DNA of 64,000 bases, taken from assembly GCA_963697875.1 (NCBI GenBank), contig OY969099.1, forward strand, positions 986,736 to 1,050,735, in the 5' to 3' direction. The notes below the pieces were generated by a model that saw nothing but the letters and a program-made list of their open reading frames with translations, made no database searches and was not told where the DNA came from. The DNA is from an uncultured Actinomycetes bacterium. GTDB lineage: Bacteria; Actinomycetota; UBA4738; HRBIN12. The position numbers were made by a program, and so were the translations under genes. Below are positions 4,031 to 16,124 of the stretch, one piece after another (position 1 is the stretch's first letter; every line of letters starts with the position of its first letter).

Positions 4031-5233
4031 GTGGACGTCGAACGGTTCAAGAACTCCCCGATAGGACGCCTCGTCCCGGTCAAGGTCACGGATCGGGGCA
4101 AGGACTTCGAACACTACGCCTACGTGGCGGATCCGCTTCCTTCAGAGATCCCGCTAACACCCTCGGCTCAGCGGCTGCACCAGGAGGCCCTGCTCTCCCT
4201 CGGGCGACTTGATGGTCTGGCTGGTCAATTGCCCGCACCGGGCAATCTCGCGAGGCCTGCGATCAGAGAAGAGGCCGTAAGCACGTCGGCTCTAGAAGGC
4301 ACGTACTCGACTCTGCCTCAGCTCTTCGAGGCCGAATTTCTCGAAGAAGACGAGATGGATCGCGGCCTACGCGAGGTCAGGAACTATGTGCAGGCGGCTG
4401 AACGCGGCCTCGCCGCCATCCGAGAAGAGGGTGCCTCCATCACGCTATGGCTCGTTCGCGGCCTCCATCAGATCTTGATGGATGGGCTCGGCGTGCATCC
4501 GTCCGACGTTGGCCAAATTCGGGACAGACAGAACTGGATAGGTCTTCGGCGTAGCTCGCCGATCACCGAGTCCCTGTTCGTGCCCGCCCCGAACGGGGAT
4601 GTCCTTCAGGATGGCCTAGAGAGCTGGGAGCGTTGGATCCACAACGAGGACATACCGCTGCTTGTTCGGGTTGCGGTGGGGCACTATCAGTTCGAGACCC
4701 TTCACCCGTTCATCGACGGGAACGGCAGGATGGGACGACTCGTCGCTCAGCTCCAACTGGTCGAGGGCGGCATCCTGCGGCATCCGATTCTCAATCTTTC
4801 GCCTTATCTCGAACCTCGAGGAGACGAATACAGAGAACACCTTCGAGAGCTCAGTGCGACAGGTGATTGGGATCCGTGGGTTACGTTCTTCTTGATCGCC
4901 CTTCGCGTACAGGCGGAAGTGGCGTCGAGGCGGACAGTTGCTCTTCTTCGCCTCCGAGACGAGTTTCTTGAGATTGCGAAGAATCAACGTATCCGGGGCG
5001 TCGGAGTCGAGATAGCAGGTGGCCTGATTGGCTATCCCGTCATCACCGCAACCTTCGCCGCGAACATATACGGCGTCACGTATCCTGCGGCCAACACAGC
5101 AATCGCGCGGCTTGAGGCCGCCGGCATTCTGCGTGAGGTGACCGGGAAGTCATATGGCCGACTCTTCATCGCGCCGCGGGTTCTTGACTTGATCGCGCCC
5201 GAGGTCCCGGTGCCGGAGGCTGGCATATCATGA
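4031..5233 (+). CDS. Fic family protein (Fic_N + Fido domain; putative AMPylase/adenylyltransferase)
   Basis: Canonical Fic motif HPFIDGNGRMGRL. N-terminal Fic_N-like region (YAYVADPLP...SALEGTYST). GTG start with a GGAAGGG RBS. Preceded by an unusually AT-rich stretch. Confidence 0.85.
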   Translation: MDVERFKNSPIGRLVPVKVTDRGKDFEHYAYVADPLPSEIPLTPSAQRLHQEALLSLGRLDGLAGQLPAPGNLARPAIREEAVSTSALEGTYSTLPQLFEAEFLEEDEMDRGLREVRNYVQAAERGLAAIREEGASITLWLVRGLHQILMDGLGVHPSDVGQIRDRQNWIGLRRSSPITESLFVPAPNGDVLQDGLESWERWIHNEDIPLLVRVAVGHYQFETLHPFIDGNGRMGRLVAQLQLVEGGILRHPILNLSPYLEPRGDEYREHLRELSATGDWDPWVTFFLIALRVQAEVASRRTVALLRLRDEFLEIAKNQRIRGVGVEIAGGLIGYPVITATFAANIYGVTYPAANTAIARLEAAGILREVTGKSYGRLFIAPRVLDLIAPEVPVPEAGIS

Positions 5234-5305
5234 GCACATAACTTCGTGAAGTTCGTTCGGCAATCACCATCGTCTTTGCAGGTCAGCACAGCGTCTAGGC
5301 CGGCG

Positions 5306-5346
5306 TGCTTGCAAAGCAGGTGCTCTACCAACTGAGCTACGTCCCC
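5306..5346 (-). repeat. 41-nt direct repeat identical to tRNA-Ala positions 1-41 (5' half through the anticodon stem); candidate att site
   Basis: Exact match of tgcttgcaaagcaggtgctctaccaactgagctacgtcccc to 561-601. The flanks are unrelated. Confidence 0.75.
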
Positions 5347-5385
5347 GCGTCGGGAGGGTTTCAACGCCTCCGTCGCTCGTCGAGT

Positions 5386-5859
5386 CTAGCGAGCATCTGA
5401 TGGAGGCGGGGTGAGATCCATCCGGAACATCACCATGTCCCGCGCGCGGATGCCGTTCTCGACCACGGGAAGCGGATACGTGTCGAAGTAGCCTTCGCGG
5501 ACCCCGTCGAACCGGAAGCCGGCCTTGCGGTAAAAGGCGATCGTGTCGAGGCTGCAGTCCGAGGTGCCGACGGTCAAGCGGGAGGCGCCGTCCCGCCTGC
5601 ACCGTTTCGCAAGAGCCTCGATGGCGGCCCGGCCGAGCCCTCGGCCGCGATGCTCCTCGGACACGGCGATGTTCCAGATCTCGACCTCGTCGCCTTCGCG
5701 GACGAGCACGGCGACGCCGACCATCCCCTCGCCATCGTGGATCTCGAGGAGCTCGCCGCGGTCCAGGTAGCCGCGCATGTGCTCTTGTGCGTCGTCGGCC
5801 TCGAGCAGGAGCGGGAGATGCCGCTCGCGGTCGAAGTGAGCAGGAACCAGAGATACCAT
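5386..5859 (-). CDS. GNAT family N-acetyltransferase
   Basis: GNAT motif A region (EEHRGRGLGRAAIEAL) and C-terminal AFYRKAGF motif. Confidence 0.8.
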   Translation of the reverse strand: MVSLVPAHFDRERHLPLLLEADDAQEHMRGYLDRGELLEIHDGEGMVGVAVLVREGDEVEIWNIAVSEEHRGRGLGRAAIEALAKRCRRDGASRLTVGTSDCSLDTIAFYRKAGFRFDGVREGYFDTYPLPVVENGIRARDMVMFRMDLTPPPSDAR

Positions 5860-5923: not shown

Positions 5924-8911
5924 TCAGCCCGCGGCGTCGAGCGCGAGCGCGATCACCTCAGCCAGATGCTTCGCCTTTCGATCGGTGTTCTGCTCGATCT
6001 GGGTCCGGCACGAGAAGCCATCGGTGATCAGGAGCGTGTCGTGCGCCGCATCGCGCACGGCGGGCAGCAGCACACGTTCGCCGGCGGCGATCGAGATGTC
6101 GTACTTCTCGCCTTCCTCGAAGCCGAACGAGCCCGCCAGTCCGCAGCACCCGGAGTCGAGGATCTCGTAATCGAGACCCAGCCGCTTGAGCACCTGTTCC
6201 TCCGCGTCGAGCCCCACGATGGACTTCTGGTGACAGTGCCCGTGGTAGACGGCCTTGCGTTCGAGCCGGGGCATCTCCCAATCGTCCGCGTATTCCTGCA
6301 GGAACTCCGACAGCATGTAGCTCTTCTGCGAGAGGCGCCGAGCGTTCATGTCGTCCGGGAACAGGTTGGGAAGCTCGTCGCGGAACGCCGCCAGACACGA
6401 CGCCTCCATCCCGACCATCGGGATGCCCTGCTCGATCGGGCGCGCCAGCGTTCGGAGTGTCTGGCGGAACAGCCGCTCAGCGGTGTCGAGCATCCCGTAG
6501 TCGTACAGCGGGCGGCCGCAGCAGAGGGGGCGGGGCGGCAGCACCACGCGGAATCCCGCTGCCTCCAAGACGCGCACGTGCGCCTTGCCGATATCGGGAT
6601 GGAAGAAGTTCGTGAACGTGTCGGGCCACAGAAGCACCGGCGGACCGGTCCTCGACCGTTCGGCTCGGGACCCGAACCACTCGACGAACGTCTCGTGCGC
6701 GAACCGGGGCGCCGCCCGACGGGGATCGATCCCGCCCGCCCGCTTCGCCATCGTCGACAGGCCCGGCGCCTTCAGCACGAAGTTCGCCAACCGCGGGACC
6801 CACGACGCGATCCGCGCCCACCAGTAGATCAGGCCCATCGCGTAGGCGACGCGGGGGCGCACGCGTCCCCGGTAGTAGTGCGAGAGGAACTCGGCCTTGT
6901 AGGTCGCCATGTCGACGTTCACCGGGCAGTCGCTCTTGCATCCCTTGCACGACAAGCACAGGTCCAGGGCGTCGTGCACCTCGTCGGAGCGCCACAGATC
7001 GATATCGGGGTTGGTCCCGCGCATCATCTCGAACAGGATCCGGGCACGCCCGCGCGTGGAGTGCTCTTCCTCGTGCGTGACCATGTAGGAGGGGCACATC
7101 GTCCCTCCCGAGTCGTGGCGGCACTTCCCGACGCCGACGCACCGCAGGGCGGCGTGGGCGAAGGATCCGTGGTCCTCCGGGTACGAGAAATGGGTCCGCA
7201 CGCGAGGCGGCGCGAAGTCCGTCCCCAGGCGCAGGTTGGAGTCCAGAGGATACGGGTCGATCAGCTTGCCCGGGTTCATCTTCCAGTCGGGGTCCCAGGT
7301 CGACTTGAACTCGCGGAACGCCGCGATGATCTCCGGCCCGTACATCTTCTCCAGCAGCTCGCCTCGCGACTGTCCGTCGCCGTGCTCGCCGGAGAGCGAC
7401 CCCCCGTACTCGAGGACGAGGTCGGACGCCTCGTCGATGAAGGAACGCCATTTCTTGATGCCGGCGGCGGTGTGCGGATCCCACGGGATACGCGTGTGCA
7501 CGCACCCTTGGCCGAAGTGCCCGTACAGCGCGCAGTTCTCGTAGTCGTAGCGCTCGAACAGGTCCCGGAGGTCCTTCAGGTAGCCGGGCAGGTTCTCGGG
7601 CGGGACCGCAGAGTCCTCCCATCCCTCGTACGTGTCCCGCTGATTCGGCACGTACGCGGTGGCGCCGAGCCCGGACTCACGCACCTCCCAGATCTTCTGC
7701 TCCGCCCGCTTGTCGTCGTAGAGCTTCTCGCCCACGTAGCCATCGGCGTCTCGCAAGTGCTTGAACAACCTATTCGCCTTCTCATCGGATTCGCCCTTGT
7801 CCTCACCTCCGAACTCGGCCATGAGCCAGCCGTTCCCCTTCGGCAGGAGCTCGAGCTCGTCCTCGTGGATCTGGAGGGCCTTGTTGTCGTCGATCAGCAC
7901 GCGGTCGAAGCCCTCGAGTGCGATCGGCTCGAACTCGCGCACCGCGGGGATCTGCGCCGCGGCCTTGTAGAGATCCTCGAACCCCACGATCACGAGCGAT
8001 CGTGCCGGCGGGCTGTCGACCAGATGCAGCGTCGCTTCGAGCACGGTCACACACGTGCTCTCGCTTCCGACGAGCGCGTACGCGAGGTCGAACCCGAGGT
8101 CGGGAAGCAGACCGTCGAGGTTGTAACCGGAGACGCGACGAGGAAACGTCGGGAAGCGCTCCTGGATCTGCACCGAGTACCGATCACGGATGTCGCGCAG
8201 CCGCCGGTAGACCTCGCCCCGCCGTCCGCCACCGGCGACGATCCGCGCCAGCTCGTCGCCGGGCGTCTTCCCCACTCGCATGCGCGTCCCGTCGTAGAGC
8301 AGGATCTCCATCTCCGCGACGTTGTGCGCCATCCGGGGCCCGGCTCCGTAGAACTCGGACATGATCGAGTAGTTGCCGCAGGCGTTGTTGCCGATCATGC
8401 CCCCGATCGTGCAGTGGTCGTGGGTCGAGGGAGTGGGGCCGAACGTCACGCGTGGCTCTGCGGACTCGCCGAGGTTCCGCAACGTGTCCAGGACCAGACC
8501 CGGCTGCACCCTGGCCAGCTTCGCCTCGCGATCCAGGTCGAGGATCTCGTTCAGATACTTGGACATGTCCATGACGACGGCGGTGTTGCAGCACTGACCG
8601 GCGAGGCTGGTGCCGCCCCCCCTGGACAGGATCGGGAGCTCGTGACGGCGGGCGGCGGCCACCGTCGCGACGACGTCGTCGATGGTCTTCGGGATGATCA
8701 CGCCCACCGGCAGCTGCCGGTAGTTCGATGAGTCCGTGGAATAGATCGCGCGGTCCCCAGGGTCGAACCGGACCTCACCCTGGATCTCATCACGCAGCTC
8801 CGCGGCGAGCGCTCGGCCGCGTTCCATCTCCTCCACGGTCGGGGCCATCTTTCCCAGTGCGGGGTCGGGACGGAGCGGAATGCGGCGCGTGGCCGGCTGC
8901 GGAGTGGTCAT
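5924..8911 (-). CDS. FAD-binding (PCMH-type) oxidoreductase fused to a C-terminal Fe-S/CCG cysteine-rich domain (glycolate oxidase GlcD-GlcF-like or D-lactate dehydrogenase-like, about 995 aa)
   Basis: GGGTSLAGQ FAD-binding motif. Large C-terminal domain with CxxCxxC...CP clusters. Start set at the internal ATG 8911 (MTTPQPATRR), which has a GAAGGAG RBS. The upstream Arg/Gly-rich frame is judged spurious. Confidence 0.8.
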   Translation of the reverse strand: MTTPQPATRRIPLRPDPALGKMAPTVEEMERGRALAAELRDEIQGEVRFDPGDRAIYSTDSSNYRQLPVGVIIPKTIDDVVATVAAARRHELPILSRGGGTSLAGQCCNTAVVMDMSKYLNEILDLDREAKLARVQPGLVLDTLRNLGESAEPRVTFGPTPSTHDHCTIGGMIGNNACGNYSIMSEFYGAGPRMAHNVAEMEILLYDGTRMRVGKTPGDELARIVAGGGRRGEVYRRLRDIRDRYSVQIQERFPTFPRRVSGYNLDGLLPDLGFDLAYALVGSESTCVTVLEATLHLVDSPPARSLVIVGFEDLYKAAAQIPAVREFEPIALEGFDRVLIDDNKALQIHEDELELLPKGNGWLMAEFGGEDKGESDEKANRLFKHLRDADGYVGEKLYDDKRAEQKIWEVRESGLGATAYVPNQRDTYEGWEDSAVPPENLPGYLKDLRDLFERYDYENCALYGHFGQGCVHTRIPWDPHTAAGIKKWRSFIDEASDLVLEYGGSLSGEHGDGQSRGELLEKMYGPEIIAAFREFKSTWDPDWKMNPGKLIDPYPLDSNLRLGTDFAPPRVRTHFSYPEDHGSFAHAALRCVGVGKCRHDSGGTMCPSYMVTHEEEHSTRGRARILFEMMRGTNPDIDLWRSDEVHDALDLCLSCKGCKSDCPVNVDMATYKAEFLSHYYRGRVRPRVAYAMGLIYWWARIASWVPRLANFVLKAPGLSTMAKRAGGIDPRRAAPRFAHETFVEWFGSRAERSRTGPPVLLWPDTFTNFFHPDIGKAHVRVLEAAGFRVVLPPRPLCCGRPLYDYGMLDTAERLFRQTLRTLARPIEQGIPMVGMEASCLAAFRDELPNLFPDDMNARRLSQKSYMLSEFLQEYADDWEMPRLERKAVYHGHCHQKSIVGLDAEEQVLKRLGLDYEILDSGCCGLAGSFGFEEGEKYDISIAAGERVLLPAVRDAAHDTLLITDGFSCRTQIEQNTDRKAKHLAEVIALALDAAG

Positions 8912-8991
8912 CCCATCGGTCTCCTTCGTGACGCGGCGCGACCCACCGACGGGCTCGCGGTCCACGAGCAGGTTTCCCGATCTGGCGCGAG

Positions 8992-9588
8992 CTAAGCGGA
9001 ACGGGCGCGGAGCCGCGGGACGGTGAGGACCGGCACGTCGGATCGGCGACGCACCTTCCGGGCCATCCCGGCCCCCAGGAGCTCCTCGACCAGGGGGCGT
9101 CGGTGGAACCCGAGCACGATCAGATCCGCCTGCTCCGACCTCGCGGCGTCGACGATCTCCTGCGCCACCTCGCCGGGACGACCGCCGCCACTGATCGCAC
9201 GGGCCCGTACCCCCTCGGATCGTAGCCGGCGGACCACGCGGTCGAGCAGCCGCCTGGCCTGCCGCTTCCCTTCGACGAACGCGCCCTCCCCCAGGATCCA
9301 CTCCGACCCGCTGAACGGCCATTCCCGGACGTGGAAGGCGACGATCGTGGCGTCCAGGCCACGGCCGAGCTCGCTCACGAAGTCCATGACGCGGCTCGAC
9401 GCCGTCCCCGAGGAGACCGCGACCAGGATCGTGTTGATGCACTTCGTGCCATCAGCTTGTTCGACCCGACGATCAGCTCGATCTCGGATCACCGCGTGGG
9501 CGTTGTCCCCGGTACGGAAGGCTCGGGTCGAACCGCTCGGTACGTGTGCTTCGGTCCGATCCATCACACACTCAGTGTGCAGGCGCAC
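8992..9588 (-). CDS. Universal stress protein (UspA family)
   Basis: ILVAVSSG...DLIVLGFHRRPLVEELLGAGMARKVRRRSDVPVLTVP is typical of the USP ATP-binding fold. The start may be the internal M (MDRTEAHV, about 9564). Confidence 0.7.
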   Translation of the reverse strand: MRLHTECVMDRTEAHVPSGSTRAFRTGDNAHAVIRDRADRRVEQADGTKCINTILVAVSSGTASSRVMDFVSELGRGLDATIVAFHVREWPFSGSEWILGEGAFVEGKRQARRLLDRVVRRLRSEGVRARAISGGGRPGEVAQEIVDAARSEQADLIVLGFHRRPLVEELLGAGMARKVRRRSDVPVLTVPRLRARSA

Positions 9589-10925: not shown

Positions 10926-11618
10926 TTGACCCTCCCCGGGGCGACCGGTAGCTTCGGCGAGGTCGTGACCGCCGACGTGCTCGCCCCCCCGACGTTCCTC
11001 GCGGCCGGACTCCTCGCGGTCGCCGGCGCCGCGAAGCTCGCCGACCCCGGCGCCGCCGCGCAACTGCTCGCAGACGTCGGGGTCCCCCACGGGCGTGCGG
11101 CGGCGCGACTCCTCGGGGCAGCCGAGGTCGCGGCGGCGGGCTGGGCGCTCCTCGCCCCCCGCGGCGCGTACGCCGTGGCGTGCGCCTACCTCCTGTTCTC
11201 GGCGTTCCTCGCCTACGTCCTGGTCGCGCGCCCGGACGCCGGCTCCTGCGGATGCGCCGGCTCCAAGACCGTGCCGCCCAGCGCGCTGCACCTCTCGCTC
11301 GACGTACTGGCCGGGGTCGCGGCGCTCGGTCATGCGCTCGCCGGCGGCTCCGGCGGGTGGGGTTGGATAGCGTCGCTCGGAACGGGCGCGGTGCCGGTCC
11401 TCGGCGGGCTCGTCCTCGCGGGTTGGGTCGCCACGGTCGCCGTCGCCGAGGCGCCCGGATCGTGGCGGTCCTGGAGGCCGGGCGGTCCCGAGGAGCACGA
11501 CCACCCCGCCCACGACCACCCGCGCGCCGACGAGGCGCTCGCCCTCGCCGGGATCGGACCAGGGCACCCGAGCTTGTGGCCGAGCACCGCGGGCGAGGGC
11601 GGGGACCGGACGGCATGA
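10926..11618 (+). CDS. MauE/DoxX-like redox-associated membrane protein with a His-rich C-terminal tail
   Basis: Four predicted TM helices. Conserved-looking GSCGCAGS motif after TM3, as in the MauE family. C-terminal EEHDHPAHDHP. Alternative GTG start at 10965. The stop overlaps the next start (ATGA). Confidence 0.55.
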   Translation: MTLPGATGSFGEVVTADVLAPPTFLAAGLLAVAGAAKLADPGAAAQLLADVGVPHGRAAARLLGAAEVAAAGWALLAPRGAYAVACAYLLFSAFLAYVLVARPDAGSCGCAGSKTVPPSALHLSLDVLAGVAALGHALAGGSGGWGWIASLGTGAVPVLGGLVLAGWVATVAVAEAPGSWRSWRPGGPEEHDHPAHDHPRADEALALAGIGPGHPSLWPSTAGEGGDRTA

Positions 11619-12199
11619 CCTCGGCGGTCCTCGAGCGGGCGATGCGCGTCGTCGAGCCCAGACGGTCGCGCCGTCGCCGGCTGGAGCGATTCGCGGAGGC
11701 CGCGAGCGCCCTGTCGGTCGCCCCGCTCGCGTACACGGCGCGACCGGTCACCGCGCGGTCCGTGCTTCACCGTACCTGCTCGTCCTGTCCCTCGGGATCG
11801 CGGTGCTGCGGCGGATACACAGCCTTCTGCTGCACGCTGCCGGGCGGGTCCAACTTCGGGTGCCCGCCGAACACGTTCGTCGGCGGCTGGTGGCAGTGCA
11901 ACTACGGCTCGGGCAACCTCTGCTCCACGACGAACGTGCGCTACTACCTGGACTGCTCGATGAACAGCGGGCACGCCTGCCCCGGCGGCTGCCATTGCGG
12001 GAACGACAGCTGCGCGAACTTCAAGACCTGCTGCGTCGTCTTCCGCTACGGGAACTGCAACACCGACATCCCCTACGTGACGCCGATCCTCTGCAGGCTC
12101 GTCACGTGCGTGATCCCCTGCCGGATCGATTGCCTGGACTGCAATTGCAGTGCGGCGGTCGACCAGACGACGTGCCGGCACGAGGCAGGCTGCCTGTGA
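11615..12199 (+). CDS. Hyper-cysteine-rich protein (194 aa, 25 Cys in the C-terminal about 140 aa), possibly Tat-exported
   Basis: ATG overlaps the upstream stop. The N-terminal RRSRRRRLERF + Ala-rich segment + AYTA resembles a twin-arginine signal. The domain carries CC and CxC pairs, one WW pair and no second Trp. Confidence 0.6.
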   Translation: MTSAVLERAMRVVEPRRSRRRRLERFAEAASALSVAPLAYTARPVTARSVLHRTCSSCPSGSRCCGGYTAFCCTLPGGSNFGCPPNTFVGGWWQCNYGSGNLCSTTNVRYYLDCSMNSGHACPGGCHCGNDSCANFKTCCVVFRYGNCNTDIPYVTPILCRLVTCVIPCRIDCLDCNCSAAVDQTTCRHEAGCL

Positions 12200-12834
12200 G
12201 CAACAGCGTCCTGACCTCGCTCGTCGTGGTGGAGACCATCCTGCTCGGCCTGCTCGCCGTGATCGTCGTTGCCCTGCTGCGGAGCCACGCCGAGATCCTC
12301 CGCCGGCTGCCGGCCTCCGAGGACCCCTCGGTGGTGCACGACGGCGACGAGCCGACGACGATCCCCGACTACCTGCCGCACCCGACCGGCCTGGTGAGCG
12401 TCGCGCACGACGTCAGCGGACCGACCGTGGACGGGCAGCAGGTCACGATCTCGATGACCTCGGGCACGGACACGCTCGTCACGTTCCTGTCGACCGGGTG
12501 CCTCACCTGCCGGACCTTCTGGCAGGGGCTGCGCGAGGGTGCCGCCTCGACGCTCCCGCGACGGCCGCGCGTCGTCGTCGTGGTCAAGGACCGGGCGCTC
12601 GAGAGCCCGTCCAAGCTCCTCGAGTTGGCACCCTCGGACCTTCCGGTGGTGCACTCGTCGGAGGCGTGGACGGCGTTCGGGGTCTCGATGTCGCCGTACT
12701 TCTGCTTCGTCGACGGCAGCACCGGAGAGGTCCGCTTCGAGGGCGCCGCCACCTCGTGGCCCCAGGTGGCGTCGTTGCTGCGCGATGCGCTCCTCGACGA
12801 GGAGATCGCTGCCGGCGAACGAGCGAGGGGGTGA
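12196..12834 (+). CDS. Membrane-anchored thioredoxin-fold thiol:disulfide oxidoreductase (TlpA/ResA/MauD-like), CxxC = CLTC
   Basis: GTG overlaps the upstream stop (GTGA), with GAGGCAGG 6 nt upstream. N-terminal TM helix. FLSTGCLTCRTFW motif and the later ...SPYFCFVDG... redoxin-like beta strand. Confidence 0.65.
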   Translation: MSNSVLTSLVVVETILLGLLAVIVVALLRSHAEILRRLPASEDPSVVHDGDEPTTIPDYLPHPTGLVSVAHDVSGPTVDGQQVTISMTSGTDTLVTFLSTGCLTCRTFWQGLREGAASTLPRRPRVVVVVKDRALESPSKLLELAPSDLPVVHSSEAWTAFGVSMSPYFCFVDGSTGEVRFEGAATSWPQVASLLRDALLDEEIAAGERARG

Positions 12835-12836
12835 CG

Positions 12837-12908
12837 ATGGACGCGTTGTTGGCGATGGGGACCGTGCTCGCGCTCGTGGCGGGCGGGCGCTCCACGTGGT
12901 CGCCCTGA
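12837..12908 (+). CDS. Possible 23-aa hydrophobic micro-ORF (MDALLAMGTVLALVAGGRSTWSP) inside the operon
   Basis: GAGGGGG RBS 5 nt upstream of the ATG. The position is intergenic in an otherwise overlapping operon. Unverifiable from sequence alone. Confidence 0.25.
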   Translation: MDALLAMGTVLALVAGGRSTWSP

Positions 12909-12917
12909 GGAGCCTCG

Positions 12918-13514
12918 ATGCTGGGAAGCATCACCCCGCTCGGCGAGCGGGGACGCGGCTCCAGGTGGTGGCTCACCGTATCGGCGTACCTCGTCGGATC
13001 GGTCGTCGGGGGGTCGTTCGCCGGCGCCCTGGTGGGGCTCGCGGGTTCGATCGTCGTCGGCAGCCTCTCGATCGCGGTGCGCCTGACGATCCTGGTGGTC
13101 GGGCTCGTCGCCGGGCTGGCGCTCGAGCTCGGCGCCTTCGGGCTCCATCTCCCGACCGCGCGGCGGCAGGTCGACGACGAGTGGCGCACGCGCTACCGGG
13201 GATGGCTGTGGGGACTCGGGTTCGGACTGCAGCTCGGGGTGGGTGTCGTGACGATCGTGACGACGTCGACCGTCTACGCCGTCTGGCTGGCGTCGGCGCT
13301 CAGTGGGGGCATCCGGGCGGGGGCCCTGATCGGGACGGTGTTCGGGCTGGCTCGTGCGCTGCCCGTCCTCACCGTCGCCGGCGTGCACCGGCCCACGCAA
13401 CTGCTCCGGGTCGATGCGACGCTCGCGCGGTTCGCGGCGCCCGCGCGCAGGATCTCGTACGCGGCCGTGGGCGGTCTGGCCGCGCTAGGGGTCGTGGGGG
13501 TGGTTCGATGGTGA
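12918..13514 (+). CDS. Polytopic integral membrane protein (4-5 TM, Cys-free), unknown function
   Basis: GAGGAG RBS 5 nt upstream of the ATG. Gly/Ala/Val-rich TM segments. The stop overlaps the next start (ATGGTGA). Confidence 0.5.
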   Translation: MLGSITPLGERGRGSRWWLTVSAYLVGSVVGGSFAGALVGLAGSIVVGSLSIAVRLTILVVGLVAGLALELGAFGLHLPTARRQVDDEWRTRYRGWLWGLGFGLQLGVGVVTIVTTSTVYAVWLASALSGGIRAGALIGTVFGLARALPVLTVAGVHRPTQLLRVDATLARFAAPARRISYAAVGGLAALGVVGVVRW

Positions 13515-13960
13515 CCGTGCAGGGTCACGGTCTCGCCGTGCAGGTGGCGAACGGATGGGAGGCGCGGATGTGGCTGCCCGGTCTGCCACCGCCGGCGATC
13601 AACCGACCTGTGATCCGTCTGGCCAACTTCGCGCTGCCGTTCTCGCGCGACACGTACGCCGACGACGTCGCCCAGGCTCTCGAGGCCGGAGCGGTGGTGG
13701 CCTCCCTCGTCGAGTTCGAGCCCGCGCTGGCGGGCCGGGGCCTGTACTCGGCGGCCGGGGTGCCGGCCTTCGGCGAGTCCGACCTCGATCCCCGTGCCGT
13801 TCAGGTCCAAGGCCACGGCCGCGCGGGGATGCAGCGGTTCTTCTCCGTCGCCGGACGTCCGTTCAGCCTGTACGTCGTGGCCCGCCGTGGCCGCGGACTC
13901 GGGCGTGCCCTCGATGAGCTCGCCGCGATGATCCGATCCCTCACCGTGGAGGCGCCGTGA
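13508..13960 (+). CDS. Hypothetical soluble protein (151 aa)
   Basis: Coupled to its neighbours by overlapping start and stop codons. No motif recognised. Confidence 0.45.
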   Translation: MVTVQGHGLAVQVANGWEARMWLPGLPPPAINRPVIRLANFALPFSRDTYADDVAQALEAGAVVASLVEFEPALAGRGLYSAAGVPAFGESDLDPRAVQVQGHGRAGMQRFFSVAGRPFSLYVVARRGRGLGRALDELAAMIRSLTVEAP

Positions 13961-14556
13961 CGCTCCTGTGGATCGCGGTGGCCGTCCTGGGGGGCCTGGG
14001 GCTCTGGCTCGGGCTGGCTCTGGCGGGCGCCGTCCGCGAGCTCGTCGTGCTCCGCGCACGCGTCGACGCGCTCGAGGCCGGGGCCGGCGCGCCGGACCAC
14101 CTCGCGTCGGGACTCCCGCCGGGCGCGCCGGCCCCGGCGTGGGAGGCGATCGACGCCGACGGGTCGCCGGTCTCCTCCAGGATCTTCACCGGCCGCCGTC
14201 ACCTGCTCTTGTTCGCCGACGCCGACTGCGCGGCGTGCGACGACATCGTTCCGTTCGTGGTGCGCGCGTCCGCGGAGGGGTCGCTTCCGCCGGCGGCGGT
14301 GATCGCGGGCGAACCATTGGACCACGCACCCGCCACGTGGCGCCCGTCGGCGGGCCGAGGCACGGTCGTGGTCGGGGCGGAGCGCGGGCGCGACGTCTCC
14401 GCGCGCTACCACGTCGACATCACCCCGACGGTCTTCGTCGTGGACGAAGGCGGGTTCGTCGCAGCTCGAGGAGCGCCGACGTCGCCGGACGAGACGCGCG
14501 ACCTGGTCGCGAGCGCGGACGGGATCCGGATCGTCGCGGGAGCAGGCGATGGCTGA
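13957..14556 (+). CDS. Second membrane-anchored thioredoxin-fold protein (TlpA-like), CxxC = CAAC
   Basis: GTG overlapping the upstream stop. N-terminal TM (LLWIAVAVLGGLGLWLGLALAG). LLLFADADCAACDD motif. The ...ARYHVDITPTVFVVDEGG... stretch is typical of the redoxin fold. Confidence 0.6.
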   Translation: MTLLWIAVAVLGGLGLWLGLALAGAVRELVVLRARVDALEAGAGAPDHLASGLPPGAPAPAWEAIDADGSPVSSRIFTGRRHLLLFADADCAACDDIVPFVVRASAEGSLPPAAVIAGEPLDHAPATWRPSAGRGTVVVGAERGRDVSARYHVDITPTVFVVDEGGFVAARGAPTSPDETRDLVASADGIRIVAGAGDG

Positions 14557-14818
14557 TCCGATCACCCGGCGCGGCTTCCTGTCCCGCACGTCGGCGGCGG
14601 CCCTCGTCGGGTTCGCGGCGGTCGCCGGCGTCGGTGGTGAGCGCCGGGCGTCCGCGCACGTCCGGCCCGCGCCGTGCCGGGTGCGCTGCGAGCCGATCAG
14701 CCGGACGGGCTGCGCGTGCGGCGGCAACCTCTATCGCTGCTCGGGATGCGGAACCAGGTTCCACGCGTGCGTGCACCGCGGCCGGTTCGGCTGGTTCTGT
14801 CTCAGGCGCTCCTGCTGA
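14549..14818 (+). CDS. Small Tat-signal cysteine-rich protein (89 aa, 10 Cys in a 59-aa mature part)
   Basis: TRRGFLSRTSAAALVGFAAVAGVGG twin-arginine signal. Mature part CRVRCEP...CACGG...CSGCGTRFHACVHRGRFGWFCLRRSC. Its ATG overlaps the upstream gene. Confidence 0.55.
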   Translation: MADPITRRGFLSRTSAAALVGFAAVAGVGGERRASAHVRPAPCRVRCEPISRTGCACGGNLYRCSGCGTRFHACVHRGRFGWFCLRRSC

Positions 14819-14819
14819 G

Positions 14820-16124
14820 TCAGACCCCGGAGCGCATCCCCACGAGGTAGGCGGAGAAGCCGATCTGGTAGCGGTCGAACGCCACGCGCCGGACCCCGCC
14901 CGAGGTGACCGCCAGCGACGGCTCGTCGTTGATCCGGTACGGCAGGTTCGACGCGTCGGTGAGCCGCTGCGGGGCGGGCCACGTCCGCCCGTCGCTCGAC
15001 TCCGCGAAGACGACGTCGACGCGGGCTCCCGCCGGTGCCGCGCAGTCGTTGCTGAGACGCGCGTTGCGCCTGCACGCGGCCACGGCGAGTAGCAGGGCGG
15101 AGTTCCCGGAAGGCAGCACGGCCGGCCCGTACCCGTCGGTGTAGATGGTCCCTCCCGCCGTGAACCCCCACGTCGCGGCGACCGTTTCGTCCCCGAGTCG
15201 CCGGGTGTCGAGCACACGCACCCCGATGCCTCCCGGCGTCGCGTAGGCGAACGCAACCCTCGGGGTCGCGGCGTCCGCGGAGCCGCCCACGGCCGGGTAC
15301 CGCAGGTCCGGATGAGGACTGGCCGGCGTGAGCTCGACCGGGGTCGACGTCGCGCCGAGGTCCGTGGCGTCGGCGTCGGAGGTGAGCGCCACCTGCCTGC
15401 CCGCCGCATCGGCGATCCAGCCGATGCCCACGAGCGCGCCACTGGCCCCCACGTCGGGAAGGCCCGCGAACCCCGTGACCGTCGCGGCGCCCATCGTGGT
15501 GGTGCCGATGCTCCGCCGCACCCAGGTACGGCCGGCGTCGGCGCTTCGAGCCAACCTGATCGCTCCCGAGTTCGCGTCGGTCCACACGGCGTACAGGTGC
15601 CGGCCGCTGGCCGCCAGGCGCGGATAGTCGACGCGCCCCTTCGGGGGGGACAGGCGGATCGGCTTGCCCCAAGTGTCACCTTCGTTCCGGGTCACACGGA
15701 CCCAGAACGCGCGCGGCGCACGGGGTCGGAAGTGCACGTATCGCGTCTGCGTGACCCACCCGACCACCACGACGTTGCCGGATGCGGCGATCGCGGCGCG
15801 TTCGGCGTGACGGCCCTTCGGGCTGATGCGCCGGGGTTTCTTCCAGGCGACCGGCGTGCCCCCCTGCCGTCCCCGCTGGACGAACACGCCCATCCACGGC
15901 CCCCTGTTCGTGGCGCACTCCTCGCTGGGCGGCGGGCAGTCGCTCGCCCACACAGAGAAGATCCGGTGGGTCGAGACCGCGAGCCCCTCGCCCGGGTTCC
16001 AGGACCATCGCGCGCCCGCACGCTGCGCCGGGCCGAACGAGACGGCCGACGCCGGCGCGGACAGCAGCGCGATCGCCCCCGCGACCACGAGCGCCGCCGC
16101 GATGCGCGCCTGCCGACGCCTCAA
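14820..16124 (-). CDS. Secreted BNR/Asp-box repeat (sialidase-like beta-propeller) protein
   Basis: N-terminal signal peptide (AAALVVAGAIALLSAPASA). Multiple S-x-D-x-G-x-T-W Asp-boxes (NEGDTWGKP, SADAGRTW, SSDGRTWPAP). Confidence 0.65.
   Translation of the reverse strand: MRRRQARIAAALVVAGAIALLSAPASAVSFGPAQRAGARWSWNPGEGLAVSTHRIFSVWASDCPPPSEECATNRGPWMGVFVQRGRQGGTPVAWKKPRRISPKGRHAERAAIAASGNVVVVGWVTQTRYVHFRPRAPRAFWVRVTRNEGDTWGKPIRLSPPKGRVDYPRLAASGRHLYAVWTDANSGAIRLARSADAGRTWVRRSIGTTTMGAATVTGFAGLPDVGASGALVGIGWIADAAGRQVALTSDADATDLGATSTPVELTPASPHPDLRYPAVGGSADAATPRVAFAYATPGGIGVRVLDTRRLGDETVAATWGFTAGGTIYTDGYGPAVLPSGNSALLLAVAACRRNARLSNDCAAPAGARVDVVFAESSDGRTWPAPQRLTDASNLPYRINDEPSLAVTSGGVRRVAFDRYQIGFSAYLVGMRSGV

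Follow-up and report, generated by a model that had tools for sequence, protein, structure and literature searches.

The locus described here raises two questions: what a run of seven tightly packed genes, g1 to g7, makes for its host, and why one of them, g4, looks like two pieces separated by a stop codon. The genes lie on the plus strand at positions 10926-14818 of a 64,000-nucleotide stretch of DNA from an uncultured Actinomycetes bacterium. This whole stretch, referred to as the window, is high in GC (~70-79% around the cluster). A sequence-only reading of the window had proposed that the genes form an undescribed extracytoplasmic redox module for hyper-Cys exported proteins. We find that the region is likely a Mau-type envelope oxidative-folding operon that is detached from methylamine dehydrogenase and includes a selenocysteine (Sec)-containing g4. 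Judged from sequence, g4 itself is almost certainly a Sec-containing homologue of MauF.

On reading the sequence, the proposed same-strand set of seven genes was fully borne out. The genes are coupled via overlapping start and stop codons, exactly where this had been claimed: ATGA at 11615-11618, GTGA at 12196-12199, ATGGTGA at 13508-13514, GTGA at 13957-13960, and a final ATG at 14549 that overlaps the TGA at 14554-14556. One part of the layout has to be revised. A micro-open reading frame (micro-ORF) and a 'Cys-free' membrane protein, previously described as two genes, are a single reading frame that a TGA codon interrupts, and together they constitute g4:

12837-13514, plus strand: g4, MauF-like membrane protein of 225 amino acids (aa), almost certainly Sec-containing; a frame fusion of two ORFs, matched to MauF by hhalign
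12906-12908, plus strand: proposed Sec codon TGA in the motif R-S-T-W-S-P-U-G-x-S-M-L; TGA in all relatives
12917-12952, plus strand: candidate selenocysteine insertion sequence (SECIS) of two adjacent hairpins, from pairing, covariation and RNAalifold
12917-12932, plus strand: hairpin 1, GAUGCU, four-base loop, AGCAUC; invariant in relatives
12934-12952, plus strand: hairpin 2, CCCCGCUC, GGC loop, GAGCGGGG; shows covariation

The former micro-ORF (12837-12908) and the membrane ORF (12918-13514) share a frame, with only the TGA and three codons between them, and the ATG at 12837 is preceded 5 bases upstream by a GAGGGGG ribosome-binding site. The micro-ORF corresponds to the first transmembrane helix of g4, and the TGA falls at the end of this helix. 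Relatives of the cluster came from a one-genome-per-species scan, which yielded 68 loci, all in metagenome-assembled genomes (MAGs) and mostly from soil Actinomycetota. The codon is TGA in all 68 sequences compared, the window included, and again in loci L073, L083 and L084, giving 71 of 71 without a single TAA or TAG; the frame and the three-codon spacing around it are invariant among these 71. The family motif reads R-[SA]-[TA]-W-S-P-TGA-G-x-S-M-[LM]-x-S-I, with invariant residues that include R20, W23, S24 and P25 before the TGA and G27, S29, M30, S33 and I34 after it. The Gly codon that follows may be GGA, GGC, GGG or GGT, and the flanking codons vary synonymously, which indicates that the stretch around the TGA evolves as coding sequence.

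Comparison with the mau cluster of Paracoccus denitrificans, fetched as the MauF reference, identified the residue that the TGA replaces. In a read-through alignment, the g4 family matched MauF over 192 columns (hhalign, 98.9%, E 2.4e-17), with STWSPCG of MauF aligned on STWSPUG of g4, and even plain tblastn found 32% identity between g4 and mauF over 182 aa. The motif Cys of Paracoccus MauF lies within one continuous ORF and is accompanied by no other conserved Cys; in the g4 family, not a single Cys is conserved. Pfam DsbD_2 (PF13386) was matched weakly by 15 of 27 g4 members (best E 8.5e-7), and the window's g4 reached no Pfam threshold. Among the best 120 of 970 database homologues of g4, all are truncated forms of 195-202 aa named 'hypothetical', 'TauE/SafE' or 'CcdA'.

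The two hairpins come immediately downstream, at +11 to +46 from the TGA, and in an alignment of 65 sequences their pairing is kept in 97.4% of cells. Hairpin 1 does not vary, not even at the third positions of two Ser codons, whereas free variation is seen in the Ser codon that precedes the TGA. Compensatory changes occur at three pairs of hairpin 2, in some cases synonymously in both strands of the stem, and its covariation score was matched by none of 500 shuffles. Both hairpins are predicted independently by RNAalifold and are also present in the minimum-energy fold. No Rfam model matches them. We regard the pair as a candidate SECIS element.

Two Solirubrobacterales MAGs (L053 and L059) have Sec machinery beside the cluster, with selD, selA, selB and tRNA-Sec located directly upstream. 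The three genes of L053 pass the NCBIfam equivalog cut-offs, and ARAGORN as well as Rfam (RF01852) detected its tRNA; for L059, the genes were detected by tblastn only and the tRNA by ARAGORN only. The block is compact in each (L053 4483-8552, L059 4446-8555), with selD on the minus strand. Probes with E. coli and actinobacterial SelA, SelB and SelD detected sel genes in these two loci only, among the loci searched. The presence of a compact sel block beside the cluster suggests that g4 ranks among the major selenoproteins of these organisms and is perhaps the principal one.

Alternatively, the TGA may be an ordinary stop, so that translational coupling yields two products, a conserved transmembrane micro-peptide of 23 aa and a membrane protein of 198 aa, and no selenium is involved. 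Gene callers do annotate the two ORFs separately, the fourth codon after the TGA is an invariant ATG (Met-28), and the bases following the TGA in the window read GGAG, much like a ribosome-binding site. In addition, no Sec machinery was seen in the 64 kb of the window, to which the search was confined. A Shine-Dalgarno site just behind the TGA was rejected, however, since 'GGA' is the freely varying Gly codon, mostly GGC in relatives, and GGAG is therefore not conserved. The invariant ATG belongs to the invariant hairpin stem. Furthermore, a mere stop has to be set against 71 TGA codons with no TAA or TAG and a fixed frame and spacing, a MauF that carries the same motif as one continuous ORF with Cys at the TGA position, and sel genes and tRNA-Sec that abut the cluster in two genomes. 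We consider an ordinary stop highly unlikely. The Sec reading of g4 draws on the uniform TGA, the Cys-containing homologue MauF, the two hairpins and the adjoining sel genes and tRNA-Sec in two genomes, and on these sequence grounds the assignment of TGA 12906-12908 to Sec is strongly supported.

If g4 is a selenoprotein, with which genes does it work? The 68 loci span several actinobacterial classes (Solirubrobacterales, Acidimicrobiia, Gaiellaceae) and two Acidobacteriota. Searched by tblastn with the window proteins, essentially all loci long enough to show them have g1-g5 in the same order, and retention of g6, g7 and a 434-aa BNR-like gene is limited to the closer clade. Distant relatives have permuted orders: g3-g4-g5-g1-g2 in L073 and MauE-Trx-g5-g2 in L074. 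An Acidimicrobiales MAG (L082, GCA_034522155.1, 5780-8513) contains MauE, g2, g3 and g5. The association of these genes is far beyond chance. Conservation of the neighbourhood across related genomes, proposed earlier as a check, thus holds for the g1-g5 core, and the recurrence of one gene set in the same and in permuted orders is strong evidence for a five-gene functional module. The same comparison removed the VOC and HxlR genes upstream, which the sequence-only reading had drawn into the unit: by tblastn they adjoin the cluster in no other locus, and we dropped them as unit members because they are never co-conserved with it. Further upstream of them, on the minus strand, are a very long ORF (5924-9442) that by eye resembles a GlcD/GlcF-like fusion of a flavin adenine dinucleotide (FAD)-linked oxidase with an Fe-S/CCG domain, and a smaller ORF (8992-9588) that by eye is universal-stress-protein-like; neither is kept beside the cluster in other loci.

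Three genes of the cluster encode putative disulfide-handling proteins of the envelope:

10926-11618, plus strand: g1, MauE-family membrane protein (Pfam PF07291), a DsbB-like disulfide generator by homology
12196-12834, plus strand: g3, membrane-anchored thioredoxin fold with GCLTC, MauD-like (hhalign to MauD, 95.9%)
13957-14556, plus strand: g6, second membrane-anchored MauD-like thioredoxin fold, with CAAC (hhalign to MauD, 97.3%)

Profile searches confirmed the earlier suggestion of one MauE-like protein and two N-terminally anchored thioredoxin-fold proteins with CLTC and CAAC motifs. The g1 product matched PF07291 at 49.5 bits (cut-off 27; E 6.8e-13) and P. denitrificans MauE by hhalign at 94%; its start is uncertain, being either TTG at 10926 or GTG at 10965. 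The SCGC motif is there, as claimed, and forms part of a CXC motif, SCGCAG, that is conserved as S-C-G-C-[AF]-G in 60 of the 63 homologues extracted. The thioredoxin-fold proteins g3 and g6 both have MauD as their best named match. A core partner kept in all loci, g3 has C-x-x-C in 68 of 69 homologues, most commonly as CLTC. The C-x-x-C of g6 is likewise conserved, within the closer clade to which this gene is limited (Redoxin E 7.9e-6, MauD E 1.2e-6). Both fall short of the NCBIfam MauD cut-off (TIGR02661, 188.6 bits), with g3 at 17.9 and g6 at 28.1 bits. We read them as MauD-like proteins rather than MauD equivalogs; the homology is clear, and the N-terminal transmembrane anchor and CxxC appear as in MauD.

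A shared peptide provides a further connection between g1 and g3. At the C-terminus of g1 (11470-11618 in the window), the His-rich stretch HDHPAHDHP noted previously is followed by a 'AGIGPGHPSLWP' tail. We counted the tail motif, [RA]x[DE]xxLxxAGIGPGHPSL[WY]P, in 24 loci of the window's clade, where MauE carries it, and in 16 distant loci (L050-L070), where it is carried by g3; it is usually preceded by a His/Asp-rich stretch that varies in sequence and is missing in many loci. That the same tail is borne by MauE or by g3, depending on the clade, ties the two proteins together. The tail has the look of a mobile peptide for docking or metal binding. MauE has been reported to replace DsbB in E. 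coli through its CXC site, and MauD has been argued to be its DsbA-like partner (Gonzalez et al., bioRxiv 10.64898/2026.03.05.709764).

What, then, is being folded? The presumed client is encoded between g1 and g3:

11615-12199, plus strand: g2, 194 aa with a long leader of the twin-arginine translocation (Tat) type, 25 Cys and 2 Trp; presumed client and remote MauA-superfamily member

The count of 25 Cys in 194 aa was confirmed. We found 58 close homologues of g2, all metagenomic, and 461 cluster representatives in an exhaustive profile search. Many members of the family are 400-940 aa long, with an N-terminal Cys-rich domain followed by CWB2, LGFP or DUF4214 cell-wall-binding repeats; fusion to such repeats indicates an extracytoplasmic, wall-associated and surface-exposed function. 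A 624-aa homologue in an Acidobacteriota MAG (L063, 9962-11836) has the Cys-rich domain followed by about four copies of an unassigned ~100-aa domain with a G..RV.GWA.DPD motif, a further case of fusion to repeats of the surface type.

Several comparisons point to a distant relationship between g2 and MauA, the light chain of a tryptophan tryptophylquinone (TTQ) dehydrogenase. A broad g2 profile that included the leader preceding the twin-arginine motif matched an alignment of eight MauA/AauA sequences (hhalign, 96.8%, E 2.1e-10); with the mature domain alone, the match to MauA was 40.7%. The mature domain matched two MauA-like proteins of Thermomicrobium roseum at 91.7% (E 7.9e-7), with 33% identity over 128 aa by tblastn, and one of these two references passes Pfam PF02975 (Me-amine-dh_L) at 36.2 bits. 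Neither g2 nor the two relatives tested gave a PF02975 match at E <= 0.1. The g2 and MauA families have in common the motif C-x-C-x-GGS-x3-CP-x-GT-x(2-4)-W...Y-x-DC, and W92/W93, the only 2 Trp of g2, adjacent and invariant, align with the first TTQ Trp (Trp57 region); nothing in g2 corresponds to the second. AlphaFold2 (AF2) modelled the mature domain with a predicted local distance difference test score (pLDDT) of ~90 from a 75-sequence alignment, as against 40 from 32 close homologues. Foldseek against 350,542 PDB chains gave the light chain of aromatic amine dehydrogenase (AADH) as the top match for g2, which is not significant (E 3.5), and nothing relevant emerged when PDB sequences were searched with hidden Markov models (HMMs) of the g2 family. 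Taken together, these comparisons suggest remote membership of g2 in the superfamily of TTQ-dehydrogenase light chains (MauA). Homologues of MauG, MauB, MauJ, MauM and MauN were found neither in the window nor in the ~70 loci. Given the unmatched second Trp position and the lack of MauG, g2 is probably not a TTQ enzyme.

The Thermomicrobium genes lie on a plasmid (L076, 7001-7444 and 11720-12172). Both are divergent and MauA-like and contain a GGAWW[AY] motif, and their sequences form a bridge between the g2 family and classical MauA; they adjoin hypothetical genes of 403 and 434 aa. Nearby mauE, mauD or mauF genes are not listed in the PLSDB gene table, which is itself incomplete.

The sequence-only reading had stated that there is no beta-propeller here. 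This holds for MauB, of which there is no homologue, but a secreted BNR/beta-propeller-like gene adjoins the cluster and is co-conserved with it:

14820-16124, minus strand: secreted BNR/sialidase-like protein of 434 aa with 4 conserved Cys (BNR_2, sub-threshold)

This gene adjoins the cluster in 34 loci, in two arrangements (convergent or divergent). In five homologues scanned, BNR_2 scored E 9e-6 to 6e-4, in every case below the Pfam cut-off; from sequence, the product is probably a beta-propeller and may be a partner or further client of the module. A diverged MauB/AauB, or a counterpart of the Thermomicrobium neighbour products, was tried as its identity and dropped (hhalign, 0.1-0.2%). 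In L083/L084, a PD40 propeller gene (L083 8444-10138, 10 repeats) overlaps the g5 stop, and in L082 a gene for an FG-GAP protein (4650-5783) precedes MauE. An amicyanin-like cupredoxin gene, with 30-34% identity to P. denitrificans amicyanin, is present on the opposite strand ~2 kb upstream of g1 in three loci only (L044, L045, L047). Consistent with the earlier statement, MauG, amicyanin and a radical-SAM enzyme are not part of the module.

These neighbours bear on the possibility that the cluster encodes a working quinoprotein-type dehydrogenase. The light subunit would be g2, with a cross-link resembling TTQ or cysteine tryptophylquinone (CTQ) formed by the WW pair and the odd Cys; the BNR-like propeller would serve as heavy subunit; and MauE, MauD and MauF would have the same tasks as they do for methylamine dehydrogenase. 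The remote kinship of g2 with MauA, the alignment of W92/W93 with the Trp57 region and the odd number of Cys (25) are in keeping with this, as are the three kinds of propeller gene (BNR-like, PD40 and FG-GAP) adjoining the cluster in three lineages and the cupredoxin gene in three loci. However, the three propellers are homologous neither to MauB/AauB nor to each other, the genes mauG, mauB, mauJ, mauM and mauN have no homologues in the window or the ~70 loci, and a second TTQ Trp is unmatched in a protein with 2 Trp only. The cluster also has no conserved electron acceptor gene, and many g2 relatives fuse their domain to cell-wall-binding repeats instead of pairing with a heavy subunit. A dehydrogenase is thus unlikely, and we favour the oxidative-folding operon. 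The recurring propellers recall the heavy subunit of TTQ dehydrogenases, which may be a coincidence.

Two small genes complete the cluster:

13508-13960, plus strand: g5, 150 aa, no signal peptide and no Cys; fifth core member, present in nearly all loci reaching it
14549-14818, plus strand: g7, small Tat-signal protein with a TRRGFL twin-arginine motif; mature part of ~52 aa with 9 Cys

All 912 homologues of g5 are annotated as hypothetical and none has a Pfam domain; a diverged MauJ or MauG was tried as its identity and dropped, as they are unrelated by hhalign. The g7 protein, earlier credited with 10 Cys, has 9, and its family, kept in the closer clade only, has the pattern PCRVRCEPIS.TGC.CGG.LYRCSGCG..FHAC...FCLRR.C. 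It is probably a second client. In profile searches, g2, g4, g5 and g7 of the window matched no Pfam or NCBIfam family.

The Cys-rich products may instead be secreted effectors, for example antimicrobial or defensin-like proteins, adhesins, or proteins that bind metals or metalloids. In that case, the redox genes would provide dedicated folding and immunity, with the selenol and the His-rich tails engaged in metal handling and not in disulfide chemistry. A mature g7 of ~52 aa with 9 Cys, the wall-anchoring repeats on g2 relatives and the His/Asp-rich stretches preceding the conserved tail motif are compatible with such a role, and several recently described membrane/transporter selenoproteins are metal-linked (PMC13188914). 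Yet the His-rich stretch is variable and absent from many loci; there is no conserved transporter, immunity, protease or metal-efflux gene in the cluster; and the disulfide roles of MauE and MauD have experimental support (bioRxiv 10.64898/2026.03.05.709764). This proposal is mainly about what the clients do and is compatible with a folding module. As an explanation of the cluster in its own right, we hold it to be quite improbable.

The best reading of the module is therefore a dedicated oxidative-folding and isomerisation system for hyper-disulfide exported proteins. In this system, g2, and g7 in the closer clade, would be made with the twin-arginine leaders observed in their sequences and then presumably exported. 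By analogy with published work on MauE, g1 would make disulfides via its CXC pair, probably coupled to quinone, and pass them to g3, whose CLTC site would oxidise the ~24 Cys of the client that can be paired; here the homologies are established and the activities are taken from the MauE/MauD literature. The g4 selenol, as its sole redox-active residue, could supply the catalytic nucleophile for a second arm in which wrongly paired disulfides are reduced or shuffled; g6, where present, would probably be its partner. More speculatively, g5 might be a chaperone that binds the long leader.

Several observations weigh against this picture or its Sec component. The Sec machinery missing from the window, already mentioned, is one. 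The fold energy of the hairpin region is thermodynamically unexceptional (z = -1.49), and hairpin 1 shows invariance without covariation. No g4/MauF-like gene is present within 8 kb in L082, so g4 is not universally required and the module can exist without a selenoprotein. We infer the reductase/isomerase arm of g4 from a weak similarity to DsbD_2 and the usual chemistry of Sec. The carrier genomes are all uncultured, and their proteins are known from sequence alone.

How new is the system? The earlier proposal of an extracytoplasmic redox module for hyper-Cys exported proteins is upheld by the tight coupling of the genes, their co-conservation and the presence of MauE with two thioredoxin folds. 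Its description as 'undescribed' was overstated, because homologues of all three Mau accessory proteins are present and g2 itself appears to be a remote MauA-superfamily member. The Sec-containing g4 family is another matter, and is probably undescribed. No model in NCBIfam (June 2026), which includes curated selenoprotein families, matches g4. A 2026 compilation of prokaryotic selenoproteins yielded no entry under MauF, methylamine, PF13386/DsbD_2 or PF02683, TsoB being its only DsbD-related entry (PMC13188914), and full-text literature searches found no paper linking selenocysteine with Mau proteins. On balance, we lean towards the view that g4 founds an undescribed selenoprotein family (Sec-MauF) and that the cluster represents a system of five genes, new and widespread among uncultured soil Actinomycetota, with which hyper-disulfide surface proteins are built.

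If this view is correct, g4 would be the first selenoenzyme assigned to the machinery for disulfide formation in the bacterial envelope. With Sec in g4 and Cys in MauF at the same position, the single conserved Cys of MauF would be marked as its catalytic residue and MauF function would become directly testable, providing a handle on its role in methylamine dehydrogenase maturation, a question that goes back to the 1990s. Databases contain roughly a thousand distinct g4 copies under the names 'hypothetical', 'TauE/SafE' or 'CcdA', which would all be cut short at an unrecognised Sec codon. The MauF/MauE/MauD trio would be a portable module with clients beyond methylamine dehydrogenase, extending the finding that MauE is a general DsbB-like enzyme. 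The work would also define a large family of extracellular ~25-Cys domains that are distant relatives of TTQ light chains and often wall-anchored.

Each component of the cluster can be set beside a known system. With the TTQ light chains (MauA, AauA; PF02975), g2 shares a long leader that has a helix before the twin-arginine motif. With the DsbD/CcdA superfamily, g4 shares an S-P-[C/U] redox residue in the first transmembrane helix; CcdA and DsbD, however, use two Cys, in the first and fourth helices, whereas g4 and MauF have one conserved redox residue and no second Cys. As in known bacterial selenoproteins (Sec-containing thioredoxins, peroxiredoxins, DsbA-like and TlpA-like proteins, and TsoB), g4 has a single in-frame UGA at a redox position for which there is a Cys homologue, a predicted hairpin just downstream of the UGA and, in some genomes, linkage to selABCD. 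TsoB differs from g4 in its UxxxxU motif and rhodanese fusion (PMC13188914).

The closest parallel is the mau cluster of P. denitrificans (mauFBEDACJGMN). Homologues of MauE (94%), MauD (95.9% and 97.3%) and MauF (98.9%) are found here in translationally coupled form, with the common motifs CXC in MauE, CxxC in MauD and STWSP[C/U]G in MauF, and next to them is a small, disulfide-rich protein with a Tat leader that is related to MauA, here g2. Unlike the mau cluster, the operon is without MauB, MauG, amicyanin, MauJ, MauM and MauN; it has a putative Sec in g4 in place of the MauF Cys, two MauD-like genes and the extra conserved g5. Its presumed client has 25 Cys as compared with 12 in MauA and is missing the second TTQ Trp, and its hosts are uncultured soil Actinomycetota, not Pseudomonadota. 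The MauE pathway described recently (bioRxiv 10.64898/2026.03.05.709764), in which neither MauF nor selenium is mentioned, also resembles the present one: g1 has the CXC followed by a small residue and Gly, is paired with a CxxC thioredoxin fold, and is located outside a methylamine-utilisation context, as described for most MauE genes. MauE in that pathway is a generalist substitute for DsbB; here, in contrast, it belongs to a fixed five-gene module with what appear to be a dedicated client and a Sec-containing MauF.

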